From a virus: DNA of 64,000 nt. Numbering within the stretch: the first letter of the stretch is position 1; every line of letters starts with the position of its first letter. A program made the translations under genes and the position numbers. Below are positions 1,199-63,525 of the stretch, in pieces. Below the pieces are notes generated by a model, which was given only the letters and a program-made list of their open reading frames with translations, was not told the DNA's origin and did not search any database. Where the stretch lies: IMG/VR virus record IMGVR_UViG_3300049491_001102, positions 32,001 to 96,000 of that record. One strand, given 5' to 3'.

Positions 1199-2094
1199 GC
1201 TACACCTCCGAACACTGCAATGACTTCGGTAGCACCAACTGTGTCTTTCTGTGCTTCGATTGTTGCTCGCATAGATTTCAGACGATCTTGCAACGCGTCC
1301 AAGTTTCGGTCGACTGCACCAGCATAAAGCGCAATCTTGTCTTTCATCCCGTCGAGCTTTTTCAATCGCGTTGCAGCCGCGCGTGGTGCCGGTTTGTCGT
1401 TGGTGTTCTGTTCCTGAACGAACTCGACCATGTCATCCATCATGGCCGTGCACTCCTGCATCAGCGCATCGATCACTGCATCGGCAGCACTGGTCACTTT
1501 GAGCGCTGGAATTCGGTACACGCGATGCTTGCTCACCAAGCCCAGAGCATCAGCTAACATGTTCCAATCGGCCTGCTTGGGCTGCGGGACAAAATAGACC
1601 CCGCCAGCTCCACGCATTCGCACGGCCTGATGTCGCTCGGCCGACCAGGTCAGCCACTGGCTCACGTCTTCGGACGTGAAAACGTCCCGCATAGCGACGA
1701 AGGAGTCGATGATCCGCGATCCAAAGTTGATGTTGTCGCGGAGCACCTTCACCGCGTCTTGCCCGTCGGCGGTCTCCGTGAGGCAAAAGATGGCGGCGGA
1801 GCTGAGGTGCAGAGACTCTTCAGTGGTTTTGTCCGCGTCCTCACCGATGACGTGGACCATCGCGCCTTTGCTGCGCACCACGTACCGGTTGCCACCAGCA
1901 TGCCGACATGCCCGGATGAGCAAGTTCTGGGTGCTGGGGGCCATGGGAGCATGGCGCTCCTCGATGCCAACTGCCGCCAAGGCATCGATCAACTTGCCAC
2001 GTTCAATGTGTTGTCCCCCATGGAGGGTCCAATAGGTGATGGCCCCGAGTGCGTCGCCGCCCGCTTGCGGCACGGCAATGTATTGGCTTGACAT
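1195..2094 (-). CDS. DUF6744/DUF3150-like phage protein with C-terminal coiled coil
   Basis: GAITYWTL and VRMRGAGGVYFVP motifs; this type of protein commonly sits near AAA/vWA genes. Confidence 0.5.
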   Translation of the reverse strand: MSSQYIAVPQAGGDALGAITYWTLHGGQHIERGKLIDALAAVGIEERHAPMAPSTQNLLIRACRHAGGNRYVVRSKGAMVHVIGEDADKTTEESLHLSSAAIFCLTETADGQDAVKVLRDNINFGSRIIDSFVAMRDVFTSEDVSQWLTWSAERHQAVRMRGAGGVYFVPQPKQADWNMLADALGLVSKHRVYRIPALKVTSAADAVIDALMQECTAMMDDMVEFVQEQNTNDKPAPRAAATRLKKLDGMKDKIALYAGAVDRNLDALQDRLKSMRATIEAQKDTVGATEVIAVFGGVA

Positions 2095-2139
2095 AGTCAA
2101 CTTATTACACCTTTTTCACTGGTTACACCAGTTGTGCGT

Positions 2140-2168
2140 AAAAAAAGCGAGAGGAGTCCTCTCGCTTT
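2140..2168 (-). terminator. Intrinsic terminator after 2197..2739
   Basis: Minus strand AAAGCGAGAGG-ACT-CCTCTCGCTTT-TTTT. Confidence 0.85.
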
Positions 2169-2196
2169 CGCGCTTAACCGGCGCGCTTGACGCTTA

Positions 2197-2739
2197 TTAC
2201 GCGCTCTTGCTCCGCGTGCGTCGGCCTGCTTTCGCCCCCGTGCCAGCCGGCTTCACCTTGGGAGGATCCGTGGGGCGGCGGAAATGCGAGACCATACCAA
2301 CACCAGAAGCTCCGGTATTGGTGCGCCAACTTACGCTTTGCTTGTCCACGGCAAGAACTTCGAATTCCTGACCGGCAAACGCAGCGTAGGTGGCAGGTGC
2401 CGTATCTCGCAACACAAGCTTCTCGCCCGGCTGAAACACCGTAAGCGTGCGCTTTCGCGAAAGCGGGAAAAATGAGCGTGGCAAGCTTTCCAGGTCTTTG
2501 GCCAAGCCAGCAATCCATGCGGTCGTTTCGGCGATGTCAGACAAGAACTTCGGCTTGTCCACCGAGTTTTTCTCCGCAACTTTCTGTTCAATTCGCTCGA
2601 ACTCCTGTTGGACCTGTTCGACTTCATTCTTAGCCCGTTCCAGGCGCTTGGCCAAACGGATGACCCACGTGACCTTGCGGGCGCGTTTCACTGGGGTGGC
2701 GGTAGTATCGGTGGTGACGGCAGCGGTAGCGGTAGTCAT
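2197..2739 (-). CDS. Hypothetical protein: coiled coil + SH3/KOW-like domain + basic tail
   Basis: ATG 2739 with SD AGAGGAG; LAKRLERAKNEVEQVQQEFERIEQK coiled coil; FQPGEKLVL...EFEVLAVD. Confidence 0.7.
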   Translation of the reverse strand: MTTATAAVTTDTTATPVKRARKVTWVIRLAKRLERAKNEVEQVQQEFERIEQKVAEKNSVDKPKFLSDIAETTAWIAGLAKDLESLPRSFFPLSRKRTLTVFQPGEKLVLRDTAPATYAAFAGQEFEVLAVDKQSVSWRTNTGASGVGMVSHFRRPTDPPKVKPAGTGAKAGRRTRSKSA

Positions 2740-2760
2740 TGATCTCTCCTCTGTCCAAGG

Positions 2761-2788
2761 ACTATAAACAAACTTCCCGCTTGTACAA
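2761..2788 (-). promoter_or_regulatory. Sigma70-like promoter for 2197..2739
   Basis: TTGTAC-16nt-TATAGT on the minus strand in the divergent intergenic region. Confidence 0.5.
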
Positions 2789-2865
2789 GTACGAACCGCG
2801 CACTTACGTGAAAAAGGTTCATCTGCTTTTACAAACTTTTCACTCGTTTCACTATTATAGCGCAT

Positions 2866-4122
2866 ATGGACAGTGAGATTCTCCGAGCCACTCTCTTGAC
2901 TCCAGGCCCTTTTGGACGTTGGGGCCTCCCCATCCTTAACTGGGGTCCTCCCGCTGTCGCTAAGACTGCGGAGGTCAACGCCGTTGCCGAGAATATCGGT
3001 TTGCGAGTCGAGACCCTCTTAGGGTCGACACGTCAAGTCGAGGACTTCCTCGGCAATCCCTACTTCCAAGACGTTCAAATCACTGATGGGCATGGACAAG
3101 TTCGTACAGTGAAAGCAACGTCTCATGCGATGCCTGATTGGGCTGTGCGGGCATTTGCTGACCCCTACACGTTGATTCACTTGGACGAGGTCTCGTTGAC
3201 TTCGCAGGAAACACAAAAGGGTTTGCTGCGCTTGGTTCATGAAGGTGTAACGGGCGAAACAGAACTCCCGAAGGTTACGCGTTTTATGGCCAGCGCCAAT
3301 CCAGCGTCAATGGCCAACGGAACATTCGACATGTCGCCGCCGCTTGTTGCTCGTTGGGGCCACGCCATGACCGGTGTGGACAGCCAACTGCAAAAAGTCG
3401 CACTCGATCAATCCTTCGTGCGGAACTGGGCGGATTGGGCGATGAGTTCTGGCGGTGATCGTCCTGCTGGATACGTGCCCGAACCACCAGACTCGCGGGC
3501 CGCCCGGGTCGAAGAAGCTCAGCAGTTCATCATGCAGACGTGGGATTCAGTCTACAAATCTGTACGTGTTGAAGTTTCGGCCTTTATGCTCTCTGCGGCC
3601 GGTGGTGTTGAAGCCTTGCACAACATGCCACCACCAGATGTAATTCGCCCTGGCGTCGCGTGGAATAACCCCAGAATGTGGGAATACGCCATGCGAGCGA
3701 TGGCATGTGCACAGATCCTCAATCTGACTGAAATGCAGCAACACATTTGGGCGGGCATGTTCGTCGGCGAAGGCATGATTGCCAAGTTCAATGCTTTCAA
3801 AAAGGACTTGAACTTACCAACACCGGAGGCATTCCTCACACGACAAGTGAGTTATTCGCACGACCCAATGAAGCTGGACCGCACAATGGCGCTTTTGCTG
3901 TCTTGCTCCAACCACATTTGCGACCCGCAGTGCACCCAAAGCCAAGTCAAGGAAGACACATTCTGGTCGTTCGTGGCAACGCTGGCAAACTCTTGCGGTG
4001 ATATTTGTGCGCCAGCAATCCGCCTGATGGTGAACAAGGGGAAAACGCACAATAAACAAGCAGCATCTGTTCTCGTTCAATTCGCAACGATGTTGCGCGC
4101 CGCCGGTGTTATGAAGATCTAA
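2866..4122 (+). CDS. MoxR-like AAA+ ATPase
   Basis: Walker A WGPPAVAKT, Walker B LIHLDEV, FMASANP sensor 1, PPLVARW arginine finger, NPRMWE sensor-2 region. Confidence 0.85.
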   Translation: MDSEILRATLLTPGPFGRWGLPILNWGPPAVAKTAEVNAVAENIGLRVETLLGSTRQVEDFLGNPYFQDVQITDGHGQVRTVKATSHAMPDWAVRAFADPYTLIHLDEVSLTSQETQKGLLRLVHEGVTGETELPKVTRFMASANPASMANGTFDMSPPLVARWGHAMTGVDSQLQKVALDQSFVRNWADWAMSSGGDRPAGYVPEPPDSRAARVEEAQQFIMQTWDSVYKSVRVEVSAFMLSAAGGVEALHNMPPPDVIRPGVAWNNPRMWEYAMRAMACAQILNLTEMQQHIWAGMFVGEGMIAKFNAFKKDLNLPTPEAFLTRQVSYSHDPMKLDRTMALLLSCSNHICDPQCTQSQVKEDTFWSFVATLANSCGDICAPAIRLMVNKGKTHNKQAASVLVQFATMLRAAGVMKI

Positions 4123-5499: not shown

Positions 5500-5595
5500 A
5501 CGCTTTGTTTGACATCTAGACGTTTTGTTAGCAACAAGCGCCGTATTCGCATTCTCTCACCCCCTGTTCAAACTTTATCCGTCCAACGCTATTAA

Positions 5596-6990
5596 ATGAC
5601 CATGAACGTCCCAGCGTTAAACCTCACGGTCAGCGGGGTGATGGCTGCTGCCCGCTACAAGGCTTGCAGCATTGCTCCCTATTTTGCGGACGGCTTGCTC
5701 GCCTTGATCCCAATGCCATGCCCCGGTTTTGGGACGTTCGCGGTGTCCGAGCACGGACACCTCATTTACGATCCCGACGTGGTGCTGGCCTGGGGTGTCG
5801 ATGTGGTCTGCACGGTTTACCTCCACGAGTTGCAGCACGTCTTGCGCAACCATGCTCAGCGCGCGCGGTCGCAAGGAGTCAGCGCGGCAACGGCCGATGC
5901 TTGGGGACAAGCCGTGGACGCGGAGATCAACGACGACCTGGTCGCGATGAAGCTTCCATTTCCCGATGGTCGCTGCGTTTTGCCCAGCACGCTGTCCAAG
6001 ACCGCGCCTGATGGTCTCTCGGCCGAAGAATATTACCTGCTCCTGCCGATCGACAATCAAGGATGTCGGCAGCCAAACGGTAAGCCAGGCGTCAACGGTT
6101 CCGGCGGCACCGGCATTCCGCTGCCCCAAGAACCGGACACTTCCGGACCAAATGCTGTCCCGGGCCGAACCCCCGCGGACATGCAGCTCATCCGCAACCA
6201 GTGCGCGGACAAGCTGCAAAAAGCCAAAAATATGGGAAACAATGGGTCTATACCCGGTGGATTCCTGCGTTGGGCTGAAGAGGTATTGGCACCACCTCCT
6301 TACGACTGGAAACAGCACCTGGAAACACGGGCAAACAACGTTTGCGCGTTCGTGCGTGGCAAAAAGAGTCGCACCTACAGCCAGCAATCGCGACGCCAAG
6401 GCATCTATGGCTATGGCTCCGGTGTGCCCGTGGTCGCAGCTCGGCGCAGCCCCATCGTCACAAGTGCCATCATGCTCGATACGAGCGGGTCGATGGATGA
6501 CGACGACATCGCTATGGGTCTCGGCATCATCGGCAAAGTGCTGCAGCACTCCACCGATCGCACGATGTTCCTAAGCTGTGATGCGGCAGTCAACACGCTT
6601 GCGAATGTTCGGTCGCTTGCAGACGTCAAAAAACTAGTTGTCGGTGGTGGTGGTACGGATTTTCGCCCAGGCTTCGCCGCGCTTGCCAAAGATCCACCTG
6701 CGGTGCTCTTCGTGCTCACAGACGGTGATGGTCCAGCACCAGCGCTCAATCACCTCCACACCACAGAAATCGTATGGGTCCTCATCGGGGACCATGCCGT
6801 GATTCCATTCTGCGACAACGCTCGACGGTCCACTGTTCCCTACGGCGAAATCGTGTGGGCTTCCGACGAAGCCCGCAAACGCAATCGCGATGCCGAAGGC
6901 AATCGCAAACGAGTGCTCCCCGAAGTGGCCGACGATGGCGATGGCCAGGATGATGACGACGATGACGATAGTGCTAACGCTACCCCCTAA
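5596..6990 (+). CDS. HExxH metallopeptidase-like (DUF2201-type) + vWA domain protein
   Basis: YLHELQHVLRNH, DAEIND, SAEEYY; MIDAS LDTSGSM, GGGGTDFRP, VLTDGDG. Confidence 0.88.
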   Translation: MTMNVPALNLTVSGVMAAARYKACSIAPYFADGLLALIPMPCPGFGTFAVSEHGHLIYDPDVVLAWGVDVVCTVYLHELQHVLRNHAQRARSQGVSAATADAWGQAVDAEINDDLVAMKLPFPDGRCVLPSTLSKTAPDGLSAEEYYLLLPIDNQGCRQPNGKPGVNGSGGTGIPLPQEPDTSGPNAVPGRTPADMQLIRNQCADKLQKAKNMGNNGSIPGGFLRWAEEVLAPPPYDWKQHLETRANNVCAFVRGKKSRTYSQQSRRQGIYGYGSGVPVVAARRSPIVTSAIMLDTSGSMDDDDIAMGLGIIGKVLQHSTDRTMFLSCDAAVNTLANVRSLADVKKLVVGGGGTDFRPGFAALAKDPPAVLFVLTDGDGPAPALNHLHTTEIVWVLIGDHAVIPFCDNARRSTVPYGEIVWASDEARKRNRDAEGNRKRVLPEVADDGDGQDDDDDDDSANATP

Positions 6991-10288: not shown

Positions 10289-10965
10289 TGGCTTACATCG
10301 ATCAATCCAAACGCGTGGACTGGCTCACGCCTCAACACGTGTTCACCGATTGGGTTTATCCCATTCTCGGCTTCGTCAACCTTGATCCTTGTGGCAATCC
10401 CAAGTCATGCCTTGATGCGGACCATCATTGCTTTGGTGAAACCGCAGGTGACGACGGTATGGCCCTAGATTGGCACCGTGTGGGCGCTGGCAACATCTTC
10501 ATCAATCCGACCTACGGCGAGCGTAAACCAAAGCCGGATCCGCGCCCCTACGTCCCCAAACTTCCGAACTTCTATCCGCTATCCGAGTGGATGGCGAAGT
10601 GCGTCGACGAATGGCGGCTCGGTGCGACTATCTTTGCGGTTTTGCCTGCGGCAACCGATCGCGTATGGTTTCACGATTTGGTGGTTCCTACCGCATCGTT
10701 TTGCCTTTTACGGAAGCGTCTTAAGTTCCGACTGCCCGAAATGGCGCCAGAGGACAACACACAACCTTGCGGCGCCAACACGTTGGTGCTCTGGGCGCAC
10801 AAAGCGGAGCAACACGAACTTTTTAACGAACTACTCAAGAAACACGGATACGTTCACGCTATTAAAAGAAAGGAAGAAAAAGACAATGCAAGTGCAACAA
10901 CACAAATTGACGATCTCACTGAACGGGGTGGAGATCCATTTGATGGATCTCCAACTACTGCCTGA
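10288..10965 (+). CDS. Phage Dam-type DNA N6-adenine methyltransferase
   Basis: DWLTP, NLDPC, GMALDW, IFINPTYG (NPPY variant), LPAATDRVWFH, RLKF. Confidence 0.85.
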   Translation: MAYIDQSKRVDWLTPQHVFTDWVYPILGFVNLDPCGNPKSCLDADHHCFGETAGDDGMALDWHRVGAGNIFINPTYGERKPKPDPRPYVPKLPNFYPLSEWMAKCVDEWRLGATIFAVLPAATDRVWFHDLVVPTASFCLLRKRLKFRLPEMAPEDNTQPCGANTLVLWAHKAEQHELFNELLKKHGYVHAIKRKEEKDNASATTQIDDLTERGGDPFDGSPTTA

Positions 10966-11143
10966 CGTGTTTGGGACAGAAAAGGACAAGATTCGATTTG
11001 TCAGCCAAACAATCACACAAATGGCAAACGACATCGCCCAGCAAGTGTGGGCGATTGGAACTGAAGATGGGTTCTTGGAGGAAGAGCAAAAGAGCATCCT
11101 TGCCGCATTCGATGCTGGTCAGCTTGTAGCCGAAGGATCGTAA
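10886..11143 (+). CDS. Hypothetical protein
   Basis: ATG 10886 with AAGGA-type SD; 3' part of track ORF 10478..11143. Confidence 0.55.
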   Translation: MQVQQHKLTISLNGVEIHLMDLQLLPDVFGTEKDKIRFVSQTITQMANDIAQQVWAIGTEDGFLEEEQKSILAAFDAGQLVAEGS

Positions 11144-11179
11144 GCTAGTTAACGCCTGTAATAAGCTCGTGAGAGCTAC

Positions 11180-11283
11180 GCTGGGGTCGTTTAGCTTGGA
11201 AAGACGAAAGTGTGCGCTTTCCCATTCGCCAATTCTTCATCAGAGCGTCCGCTTTCACGCTGGTTCGATTCCTGCCCCCAGCT
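11180..11283 (+). ncRNA. tRNA-like RNA with extended, non-canonical anticodon arm
   Basis: Acceptor GCTGGGG/CCCCAGC, D-arm GTTT-AGCTTGGAA-AGAC, T-arm GCTGG-TTCGATT-CCTGC; anticodon region is a ~50-nt two-helix hairpin with a 21-nt loop. Confidence 0.7.
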
Positions 11284-11287
11284 CTAC

Positions 11288-11464
11288 ATGACTGTTAGAC
11301 CAATATTTGCCTGGTACGACCTATGGGTCGGTGTGTTCATCGATAAGCCGAAGAGACGAATTTATGTCTTCCCCATCCCAACAATCGGAATCATCATCGA
11401 GTACGGACGAACAAGCCGTCGAGAAGGCGACGGTCAATCCAGACAAGCTAGCCGAATGCCCTGA
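11288..11464 (+). CDS. Small conserved-type phage protein
   Basis: FAWYDLWVGVFID...IYVFPIPTIGII motif typical of small phage ORFs. Confidence 0.6.
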   Translation: MTVRPIFAWYDLWVGVFIDKPKRRIYVFPIPTIGIIIEYGRTSRREGDGQSRQASRMP

Positions 11465-11801
11465 TGCAAACTTAGCATTGCTAGTTTACTCCCACGGCAA
11501 CGATTGCTTCTGCATTGACGTGTCTTCACACCATTCGCTTGAAGAGTTCGACATCGGTGTTTATGACATAGCTAAGGGTGATTCTGGCGAAATAGACGAC
11601 TTGCGACTTCCTCGGGGGTACTGGGTCGTGTTCTACAATGCGCAATATGTCCCTGCCCATGATTCAGACCAGTGGGTCCTTGTACGTGGGGACTTCATCG
11701 CTACACGACTCGCTACGCTGGAGGAGATTAAAAAGGTCTTCAAAGGTCTTGAACTTGAATTGTTCTACGAAGTTAATCTTCGCGCAGAGGTACCATTTTA
11801 A
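11364..11801 (+). CDS. Hypothetical acidic protein
   Basis: ORF coupled (TAATG) to the next gene; start uncertain. Confidence 0.5.
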   Translation: MSSPSQQSESSSSTDEQAVEKATVNPDKLAECPDANLALLVYSHGNDCFCIDVSSHHSLEEFDIGVYDIAKGDSGEIDDLRLPRGYWVVFYNAQYVPAHDSDQWVLVRGDFIATRLATLEEIKKVFKGLELELFYEVNLRAEVPF

Positions 11802-12106: not shown

Positions 12107-12763
12107 ATGACCACGACAATTGAACGGTCCGCACCTGTCGCTGGTCAACGTTGGAAGCACTACAAAGGCACGGTATACACGGTCGTGTGCATCGCTCAAT
12201 CTACCGCGGATTTAGAAAAGAAACTCGTCATCTACCGTGATGGTGACAAGTCTTACGCGAGACCAATCGAAGAGTTCATGGAGTATGTAGCCGCAATCCA
12301 GAAACCTAGATTCAAACAAGTTTCAGCCGGTGCCCATATCCCATCAAACGTTGACAACCCGCCAATCTGTCCCTACTGCCAAAATGCTGCGCAACTTGTG
12401 CTCGGTGGCCGCATCTATCCCCACCGGTACGACCTTGCAGAGTTGCAAATGTGGCTTTGTTCCCGATGCAACGCTTGGGTTGGCTGCCACAAACCGAGTG
12501 CACATAGCGACGGCACCGTCCCATTTGGCCGACTTGCCAACGCAGAGCTGCGTGGACTCAAGACGCAAGCCCACGCCGCATTCGATCCGCTTTGGAAAAA
12601 TCATGGCATCACGCGAGATGACGCCTACGCATGGCTTGCCGAAGAGCTCGGGTTAGCCAAAGATCTCACGCACATTGGTATGTTTGACGAAGACACGTGT
12701 CGCCGTGTTATCGAACTCTGTATAACCACGGACCCAAGGAAAATTCGTGCTCTCGCAAAATAA
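12107..12763 (+). CDS. DUF1653-like + DUF3268-like zinc-finger fusion protein
   Basis: N-term WKHYKGTVYTV...LVIYR...YARPIEEF...PRF; C-term CPYC...YPHRYDL...WLCSRCNAWVGCH...GRLANAELR...AHAAFDPLW...AYAWLA...HIGMFD. Confidence 0.75.
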   Translation: MTTTIERSAPVAGQRWKHYKGTVYTVVCIAQSTADLEKKLVIYRDGDKSYARPIEEFMEYVAAIQKPRFKQVSAGAHIPSNVDNPPICPYCQNAAQLVLGGRIYPHRYDLAELQMWLCSRCNAWVGCHKPSAHSDGTVPFGRLANAELRGLKTQAHAAFDPLWKNHGITRDDAYAWLAEELGLAKDLTHIGMFDEDTCRRVIELCITTDPRKIRALAK

Positions 12764-63385: not shown

Positions 63386-63525
63386 GGTTCGTTCCTCTGG
63401 ATCAGTGCGTGTGTACCTATTTTATAGTGTTAGAACAAAAAAGTTCTCGAAAATTAAAGCGTGAATAACGCAAACCCTCGGCTACAACACCAAACTTTTA
63501 TCGCTAAACGCTATAATAGGGAAAG

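Follow-up and report, generated by a model that had tools for sequence, protein, structure and literature searches.

A tRNA-like element without an anticodon loop in a phage genome: a candidate mRNA punctuation signal in front of a small conserved gene

What is the role of a tRNA-shaped sequence that lies between two genes of a phage and carries a long hairpin in the place of its anticodon arm? The question was raised by a locus in the IMG/VR virus record IMGVR_UViG_3300049491_001102, a linear sequence of 111,463 bp with a G+C content of 52% that is estimated to be complete. The window analyzed here is the stretch of 64,000 nucleotides that corresponds to bases 32001-96000 of this record, and positions refer to the window unless they are said to be genome positions. 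The record contains genes for a tail sheath, a portal protein, and a large terminase, as well as endolysin-like and thymidylate-kinase-like genes, and the capsid protein has a distant likeness to the capsids of Stenotrophomonas and Vibrio phages. An archaeal host was considered unlikely on the basis of the median protein pI of 7.1 and the endolysin matches, which point to a bacterial host. The features of the locus are as follows.

10943-11143, plus strand: upstream ORF P0006, a probable gene for 66 amino acids, with its stop 20 nt before the leader hairpin
11164-11177, plus strand: leader hairpin of 5 bp with the tetraloop GTGA; 2 nt separate it from the acceptor stem
11180-11283, plus strand: tRNA-like element, identified by direct reading, folding, and the intron mode of ARAGORN
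11180-11186/11276-11282, plus strand: acceptor stem, 7 of 7 pairs Watson-Crick
11189-11205, plus strand: D-arm with a 4-bp stem (one G.U pair) and a loop that contains A14, G15, G18, G19, and A21
11206-11256, plus strand: long arm that replaces the anticodon arm, a helix of 7+7 bp with a 21-nt loop at its tip
11206-11212/11250-11256, plus strand: helix 1 of the long arm, 7 bp with one G.U pair
11214-11220/11242-11248, plus strand: helix 2 of the long arm, 7 bp with two G.U pairs
11221-11241, plus strand: loop of the long arm, 21 nt
11259-11275, plus strand: T-arm with the loop TTCGATT and one U.U mismatch (51.63) in the stem
11288-11464, plus strand: P0007, a gene for 58 amino acids, with its ATG 4 nt after the discriminator
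11478-11801, plus strand: likely true extent of the next gene, with a predicted TTG start at 11478

An earlier note on this DNA had listed the acceptor stem, the GG of the D-arm, and the TTCGATT loop of the T-arm, all of which were read exactly as described. The coordinates that it gave for the two helices and the 21-nt loop were confirmed, as was its GTGA hairpin 2 nt upstream, and the minimum-free-energy fold (RNAfold) agrees with this reading in that it gives a cloverleaf with a long arm, in which a 1x1 T.C mismatch separates the two helices. The core tertiary nucleotides are all present (U8, A14, G15:C48, G18, G19, T54, T55, C56, A58, and G53:C61), and the core contacts of a tRNA are kept, namely U8-A14, G15-C48, G18/G19 with the T-loop, and T54-A58. 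The T-arm matches the consensus GGTTCRANYCC. Direct reading also bore out 3 absences reported previously: there is no 7-nt anticodon loop, no G3.U70 pair, since pair 3:70 is U:A, and no encoded CCA, the discriminator T11283 being followed by CTA. A 5-bp anticodon stem with a 7-nt loop is lacking altogether, and the element contains no 7-nt window with U33 and R37 that a stem could close. The U.U mismatch in the T-stem and the variable region of only 3 nt are details that the previous description did not include.

With default settings, ARAGORN made no call and Rfam gave no match at the gathering thresholds, which is what had been expected of standard settings, and the element scored 8.9 bits with the tRNA model RF00005, as compared with a gathering threshold of 29 bits. 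In intron mode, ARAGORN reported a tRNA-Thr(cgt) with a 32-nt intron at 11214-11245, the sole ARAGORN call in the 111-kb record, while the same mode produced 1 call in 30 shuffled 111-kb genomes (3.3 Mb), or about 0.03 per genome. Furthermore, the long arm folded alone with an energy of -14.1 kcal/mol (z = -3.84), and none of 200 shuffled sequences folded as well. Taken together, the cloverleaf fold, the z-score of the long arm, the rarity of calls in shuffled genomes, and the low RF00005 score indicate that the element is clearly derived from a tRNA and clearly not a decoding tRNA. It shares the acceptor stem, the D-arm, the T-arm, and the tertiary core with canonical tRNAs, and the CCA is unencoded as in many phage tRNAs, but it cannot decode. 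The tmRNA mode of ARAGORN (-m) gave no call, and there was neither a tag ORF nor a pseudoknot. A hammerhead ribozyme on the minus strand, for which a CUGAUGA...GAAA pattern was noted, was rejected because stems II and III fail to form and Rfam finds nothing. A remnant of a phage attachment site (attP) is also unlikely, given that the virus record contains no tyrosine integrase.

The ARAGORN call corresponds to an intron-bearing tRNA-Thr(CGU) that would be functional once the 32-nt intron had been removed, and an unusual intron was among the suggestions made previously. The pairs G1:C72 and C2:G71 agree with the acceptor rules of bacterial ThrRS. However, G32 and C37 would be left in the spliced loop whatever cut point is chosen, and the arm does not form a bulge-helix-bulge, since its helix is continuous apart from one 1x1 mismatch and lacks 3-nt bulges. 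The phage record has no matches to PF01974, PF01139, or PF09414 (EndA, RtcB, and RNA ligase), and the splicing of such introns is not known from bacteria. A group I intron fares no better, since the catalytic core (P3-P9) of these introns comprises about 200 nt or more, so that an insert of 32 to 37 nt is an order of magnitude too short, and no Rfam intron model matched at E values up to 10. An intron-bearing tRNA was accordingly judged to be very improbable.

A second explanation is that the element is a decaying tRNA gene, the anticodon arm of which was wrecked by a duplication or an insertion and which is now without function. The score of 8.9 bits, the T-stem mismatch, and the short variable region are in line with decay, and so is a sign of local duplication noted by direct reading, namely that a unit of 15 to 16 nt at 11206-11221 returns at 11242-11256, where 12 of 15 positions agree. 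Yet decay would not be expected to spare all of the acceptor pairs and tertiary nucleotides while building a 14-bp helix. The surroundings of the element, described below, also bear on this explanation.

The ATG of P0007 follows almost directly upon the element. A search of 5.8 billion proteins identified 34 homologues with E values of 1e-16 to 3e-7, and the family alignment has an invariant FAW.DLW.G core, with an MTVR start in the same column as that of P0007 in 9 of the 20 aligned homologues. Judging from this conservation, the ORF at 11288-11464 represents a real gene of a conserved family of small proteins. It is not on record for the virus genome, for which the gene callers selected an overlapping ORF of 145 amino acids that starts at 11364. 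This ORF (11364-11801) overlaps P0007 out of frame and returned only itself in the search, and the gene called from 11364 probably starts only at the TTG at 11478. A Shine-Dalgarno sequence would not fit in front of the start codon of P0007, where the bases belong to the acceptor strand. In the Chryseobacterium phage MA9V-3, a terminator-like hairpin and an AT-rich stretch immediately precede the P0007 homologue, which looks like the first gene of a transcription unit; this would fit a role for the element in supplying a new 5' end for P0007 in the phage studied here. On the other side of the element, no family match was obtained for P0006, which is for this reason a putative coding sequence. 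The sequences of 2 ORFs downstream of the element had no informative look-alikes in the ESM Atlas.

The genome contains a second tRNA-like element, located outside the window between 2 genes on the same strand.

Genome positions 102611-102691, minus strand: second tRNA-like element, 20.2 bits with RF00005 at a relaxed threshold

In this element, all 7 acceptor pairs are formed and the T-arm is perfect, the D region is degenerate, and the central part is an irregular hairpin with a UUCAUAG loop. Weak matches were obtained to the ends of the tmRNA model (15 bits) and to the T-arm of the mascRNA model RF01684 (13 bits). A 5-bp hairpin with a GATT loop ends 3 nt upstream of it, and an ATG located 2 nt past the discriminator opens an ORF for a hydrophobic protein of 38 amino acids, the stop of which lies 2 nt before the ATG of the next gene. 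As with P0007, the bases upstream of this ATG are those of the acceptor strand and there is no room for a Shine-Dalgarno sequence. A looser structural scan of the genome revealed no further convincing copy, leaving the second element as the only other one.

The 2 loci thus have a common layout, in which a G+C-rich 5-bp hairpin with a tetraloop ends 2 to 3 nt upstream of the element and an ATG follows 2 to 4 nt after the discriminator; both elements are also followed by a similar short trailer. Hairpins of this kind have a background frequency of 1.0% at random genome positions, and the frequency is 3.8% for an ATG that lies within 0 to 5 nt and starts a frame of at least 38 codons. Each of the two elements has the hairpin as well as the ATG, although these statistics concern two loci of a single genome and were framed after the pattern had been seen. 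Among 418 matches to tRNAs or tRNA-like sequences at other phage loci, an ORF started within 5 nt in 3.1% of cases, which is the background rate, and an abutting ORF start is therefore not a general habit of phages.

The shared layout weighs against decay, which does not account for the position of the hairpin (2 to 3 nt upstream) and of the ATG (2 to 4 nt downstream) at two separate loci, or for the real gene P0007, in which no other way of initiation is visible. In favor of decay, no homologues of the element were found in IMG/VR, in 50,697 phage records, in the JGI metagenomes, or in 185,579 species genomes. In these searches, the exact 5' half of the element had no match in IMG/VR, while a pattern for the 3' half retrieved 12 unrelated tRNAs and tRNA-like sequences. 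A blastn search against the 50,697 phage records yielded just T-arm matches to ordinary tRNAs. A pattern that combined the D-loop and the T-loop gave 71 matches, all of which were copies of an unrelated hairpin motif that precedes normal tRNAs. The acceptor stem and T-arm with a long gap between them retrieved, from the JGI metagenomes, only intron-bearing tRNAs on low-GC contigs of archaeal appearance, and a version of the element with normal length was found in one archaeal MAG among the 185,579 species genomes. On balance, we consider simple decay to be unlikely, and less likely than a function in the punctuation of mRNAs.

Relatives of the phage were also sought through its other genes. 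The Dam-like methylase has relatives at 41% to 65% identity, of which one in the group at 62% to 65% is located on a 109.5-kb contig; a search with the methylase alignment in three collections returned nothing. The capsid protein led to one 31-kb fragment with 50% identity and no tRNA-like sequence. The sheath protein matches phrog_15814 (E = 3e-163), and in the phage collection nothing exceeded 25% identity to it. A scan for the promoter-like motif described below identified only single, unrelated matches.

Several other viral sequences were noted during these searches. [quoted passage not shown] A 199-kb jumbo-phage contig from IMG/VR contains 4 tRNAs (ending at 3982, 6533, 6863, and 13818) with an ATG within 1 to 4 nt; these ATGs open frames of 66 to 83 codons, and two of them overlap the encoded CCA (CCATG). 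Three other IMG/VR contigs share a tRNA that is followed by CTATG and a frame of 252 to 264 codons. It was also noted that many unrelated-looking viral contigs in IMG/VR, many of them from sample 3300045988, have a conserved hairpin a few nucleotides upstream of ordinary tRNA genes, consisting of a GCTTG stem, a GAAAGA or GAATAGA loop, and a CAAGC stem, which may be a processing or promoter signal.

If the element marks an mRNA boundary, it should lie within a longer transcript. The phage has a promoter-like motif of its own, AACTTT followed by 12 nt and a CTAT-rich box, of which there are 9 exact copies and a tenth with a relaxed -10-like box.

Genome positions 860, 9687, 12598, 27888, 34834, 37571, 95420, 95493, and 105494: exact copies of the motif
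2834-2859, 5571-5596, 63420-63445, and 63493-63518: copies in the window
5571-5596, plus strand: nearest copy upstream of the element, where the polycistronic unit with the element presumably begins

Six of the 9 exact copies have a start codon 4 to 7 nt after the -10-like box, a spacing that implies leaderless or near-leaderless mRNAs, and leaderless expression thus looks routine in this phage. The element is on the same strand as its neighboring genes, and the nearest upstream copies of the motif on the same strand are about 5.6 kb away for this element and about 2.8 kb away for the second one. Between 5596 and the element, the plus strand contains no copy of the motif and no sigma-70-like site, and sigma-70-like promoters were absent from the region scanned; the only terminator-like matches in this interval are weak and lie inside genes. 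With no promoter and no convincing terminator in between, the element is probably co-transcribed with the genes upstream of it, and both tRNA-like elements are most likely internal to long transcripts.

We propose that the element is a punctuation signal in a polycistronic phage transcript and that RNase P and RNase Z cleave it in the manner of the t-elements of plant mitochondria and of the tRNAs in the mitochondrial punctuation model, and assign a probability of roughly 0.5 to this reading. RNase P and RNase Z both read the acceptor stem, the T-arm, and the elbow, and the discriminator is the normal RNase Z site in precursors without CCA. That these parts are intact while the decoding part is absent supports a signal for the two enzymes, and the start of P0007 only 4 nt after the discriminator, together with the repeated layout at the second locus, points to mRNAs as the products. 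According to this model, the RNase P of the host would cut at G11180, leaving the upstream mRNA with a 3' end that consists of the GTGA hairpin and 2 nt and should resist 3' exonucleases. A second cut would be made at or next to T11283, and we take the enzyme to be RNase Z because the CCA is not encoded. In the downstream mRNA freed by this cut, just 4 nt would separate the new 5' end from the AUG at 11288, so that the conserved 58-amino-acid protein would be translated from a near-leaderless mRNA; with its 4-nt leader, it would not be strictly leaderless. The same cuts at the second element would leave a hairpin and 3 nt at the end of the upstream mRNA and an AUG 2 nt from the 5' end of the downstream mRNA. 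Neither cleavage would need the anticodon arm, which could have been rebuilt into a long helix that forms by itself and maintains the folded L-shape. An RNA of about 104 nt would be released, either as a by-product or as a molecule with a further role.

A variant of this scheme is that RNase P alone cuts, and that the tRNA-like structure stays on the P0007 mRNA as a structured 5' cap that either shields it against 5'-end-dependent decay or promotes its translation in another way. The element directly abuts the start codon, and 5' structures are known to stabilize bacterial mRNAs. However, the 30S subunit would probably have poor access to an AUG that has no Shine-Dalgarno sequence and lies at a distance of 5 nt from a stable coaxial stack of 12 bp, and the missing CCA and the clean context of the discriminator suit RNase Z. 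We regard a retained cap as quite improbable.

Alternatively, the released RNA could itself be the product, a stable small RNA on a tRNA scaffold with a loop or arm that binds a host RNA or protein and acts as a sponge, a decoy, or a regulator. This explanation can coexist with punctuation, and mRNA processing would then be a side effect. It is favored by the stability of the long arm, which far exceeds that of the shuffled sequences, and by the retention of every nucleotide of the tertiary core. The loop provides no such support: the best duplex between the 21-nt loop and any phage transcript had an energy of -24.0 kcal/mol, within the range of -21 to -29 kcal/mol for shuffled loops, and the longest exact complement in the phage genome was 10 nt, so that an antisense role, as suggested in the earlier note, has no phage target above the shuffled level. 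Searches by blastn against the 50,697 phage records and in the JGI metagenomes gave no other occurrence of the loop or of the insert. Moreover, no gene for an RNA-binding partner was found near the element, and the middle part of the second element is quite different, so that no common effector surface is visible. A decoy for anticodon nucleases, which had also been proposed, finds little to recommend it in an element that offers no anticodon loop to cleave. The broader idea of a natural tRNA-scaffolded RNA stands insofar as the element is tRNA-shaped and non-decoding and its surroundings fit processing by RNase P and RNase Z, while the antisense, decoy, and intron roles gained no support. We consider a small RNA as the main product to be rather unlikely. 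The long arm is nevertheless longer and better paired than a processing signal needs, as its z-score illustrates, which hints at an extra role, and the excised long-armed RNA may have a second function alongside that of the punctuation signal.

A tie between the element and a gene for a DUF1653-DUF3268 fusion protein, which is located at 12107-12763 in the window and 820 nt downstream of the element, was treated as a coincidence. The idea came from odd tRNA-like genes upstream of DUF3268 genes in a single soil-phage family, and no tRNA was found near the DUF3268 gene in 2 phage records that were inspected out of the 672 that contain this domain. DUF3268 is a zinc-finger domain with no known function, and the 672 records represent phages of many hosts. 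In the soil-phage family from IMG/VR, irregular tRNA-like genes are arranged in rows on one strand (for example at 2201-3572 and 1790-3714 on two contigs). They include genes with anticodon loops of 6 and 9 nt, an 88-nt form, and a form of 104 to 128 nt in which a large insert separates the acceptor stem from the T-arm, and the rows stop 290 to 390 nt upstream of the DUF3268 gene.

The proposed signal resembles systems in which tRNA-like structures define the ends of other RNAs. In plant mitochondria, t-elements are non-canonical cloverleaves that direct cleavage by RNase P and RNase Z and thereby form mRNA ends, and they are defined by an acceptor stem and a GGTTCRANYCC T-arm that are kept within the non-canonical cloverleaf (Forner et al. 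2007, PMC1920247). Both the element and the second element have these two features. As in t-elements and in tRNA punctuation, a non-canonical cloverleaf with a retained acceptor stem and T-arm would be part of a polycistronic transcript, RNase P and RNase Z would form mRNA ends at its borders, and the mRNAs would be released without leaders, or nearly so, as in animal mitochondria. Unlike t-elements, the element belongs to a phage rather than an organelle; its anticodon arm has been lengthened to a 14-bp helix with a 21-nt loop instead of being lost; and it has a dedicated hairpin 2 nt upstream. The mascRNA module at the 3' end of MALAT1 (RF01684) is likewise a tRNA-like structure in a longer transcript, where cuts by RNase P and RNase Z define the flanking ends and release a small tRNA-like RNA. 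However, mascRNA is eukaryotic and nuclear with a short anticodon-like arm, and the two have no relation in sequence, with no Rfam match for the phage element. The tRNA-like domain of tmRNA and the YrlA module also mimic the acceptor stem and T-arm without decoding. In contrast to tmRNA, the phage element has no G3.U70 pair, tag reading frame, or pseudoknots, and in contrast to the phage element, YrlA, a bacterial Y RNA, is circularly permuted and ends in a Ro-binding stem.

More generally, this phage could use tRNA-like elements without anticodons as punctuation marks, with excision by RNase P and RNase Z yielding upstream mRNAs capped by a hairpin and, for small genes without a ribosome binding site, near-leaderless mRNAs. 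The logic would be that of mitochondria, evolved independently in a virus with promoters that would likewise give rise to leaderless mRNAs. We put this forward tentatively, at somewhat less than even odds. If it is true, phages recruit the tRNA maturation enzymes of their hosts to shape their own mRNAs, and a tRNA gene can persist purely as a cleavage signal after the loss of its anticodon. It would also provide a testable role for some of the anticodon-less tRNA look-alikes in phages that are missed by tRNA finders and Rfam, and a post-transcriptional route to leaderless mRNAs in bacteria. For annotation, the locus represents a trap, in which a true gene for 58 amino acids was overlooked and an overlapping ORFan was called in its place. 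The compact module of a hairpin, a tRNA-like element, and an ATG could be used as a designable part to split the transcripts of operons.
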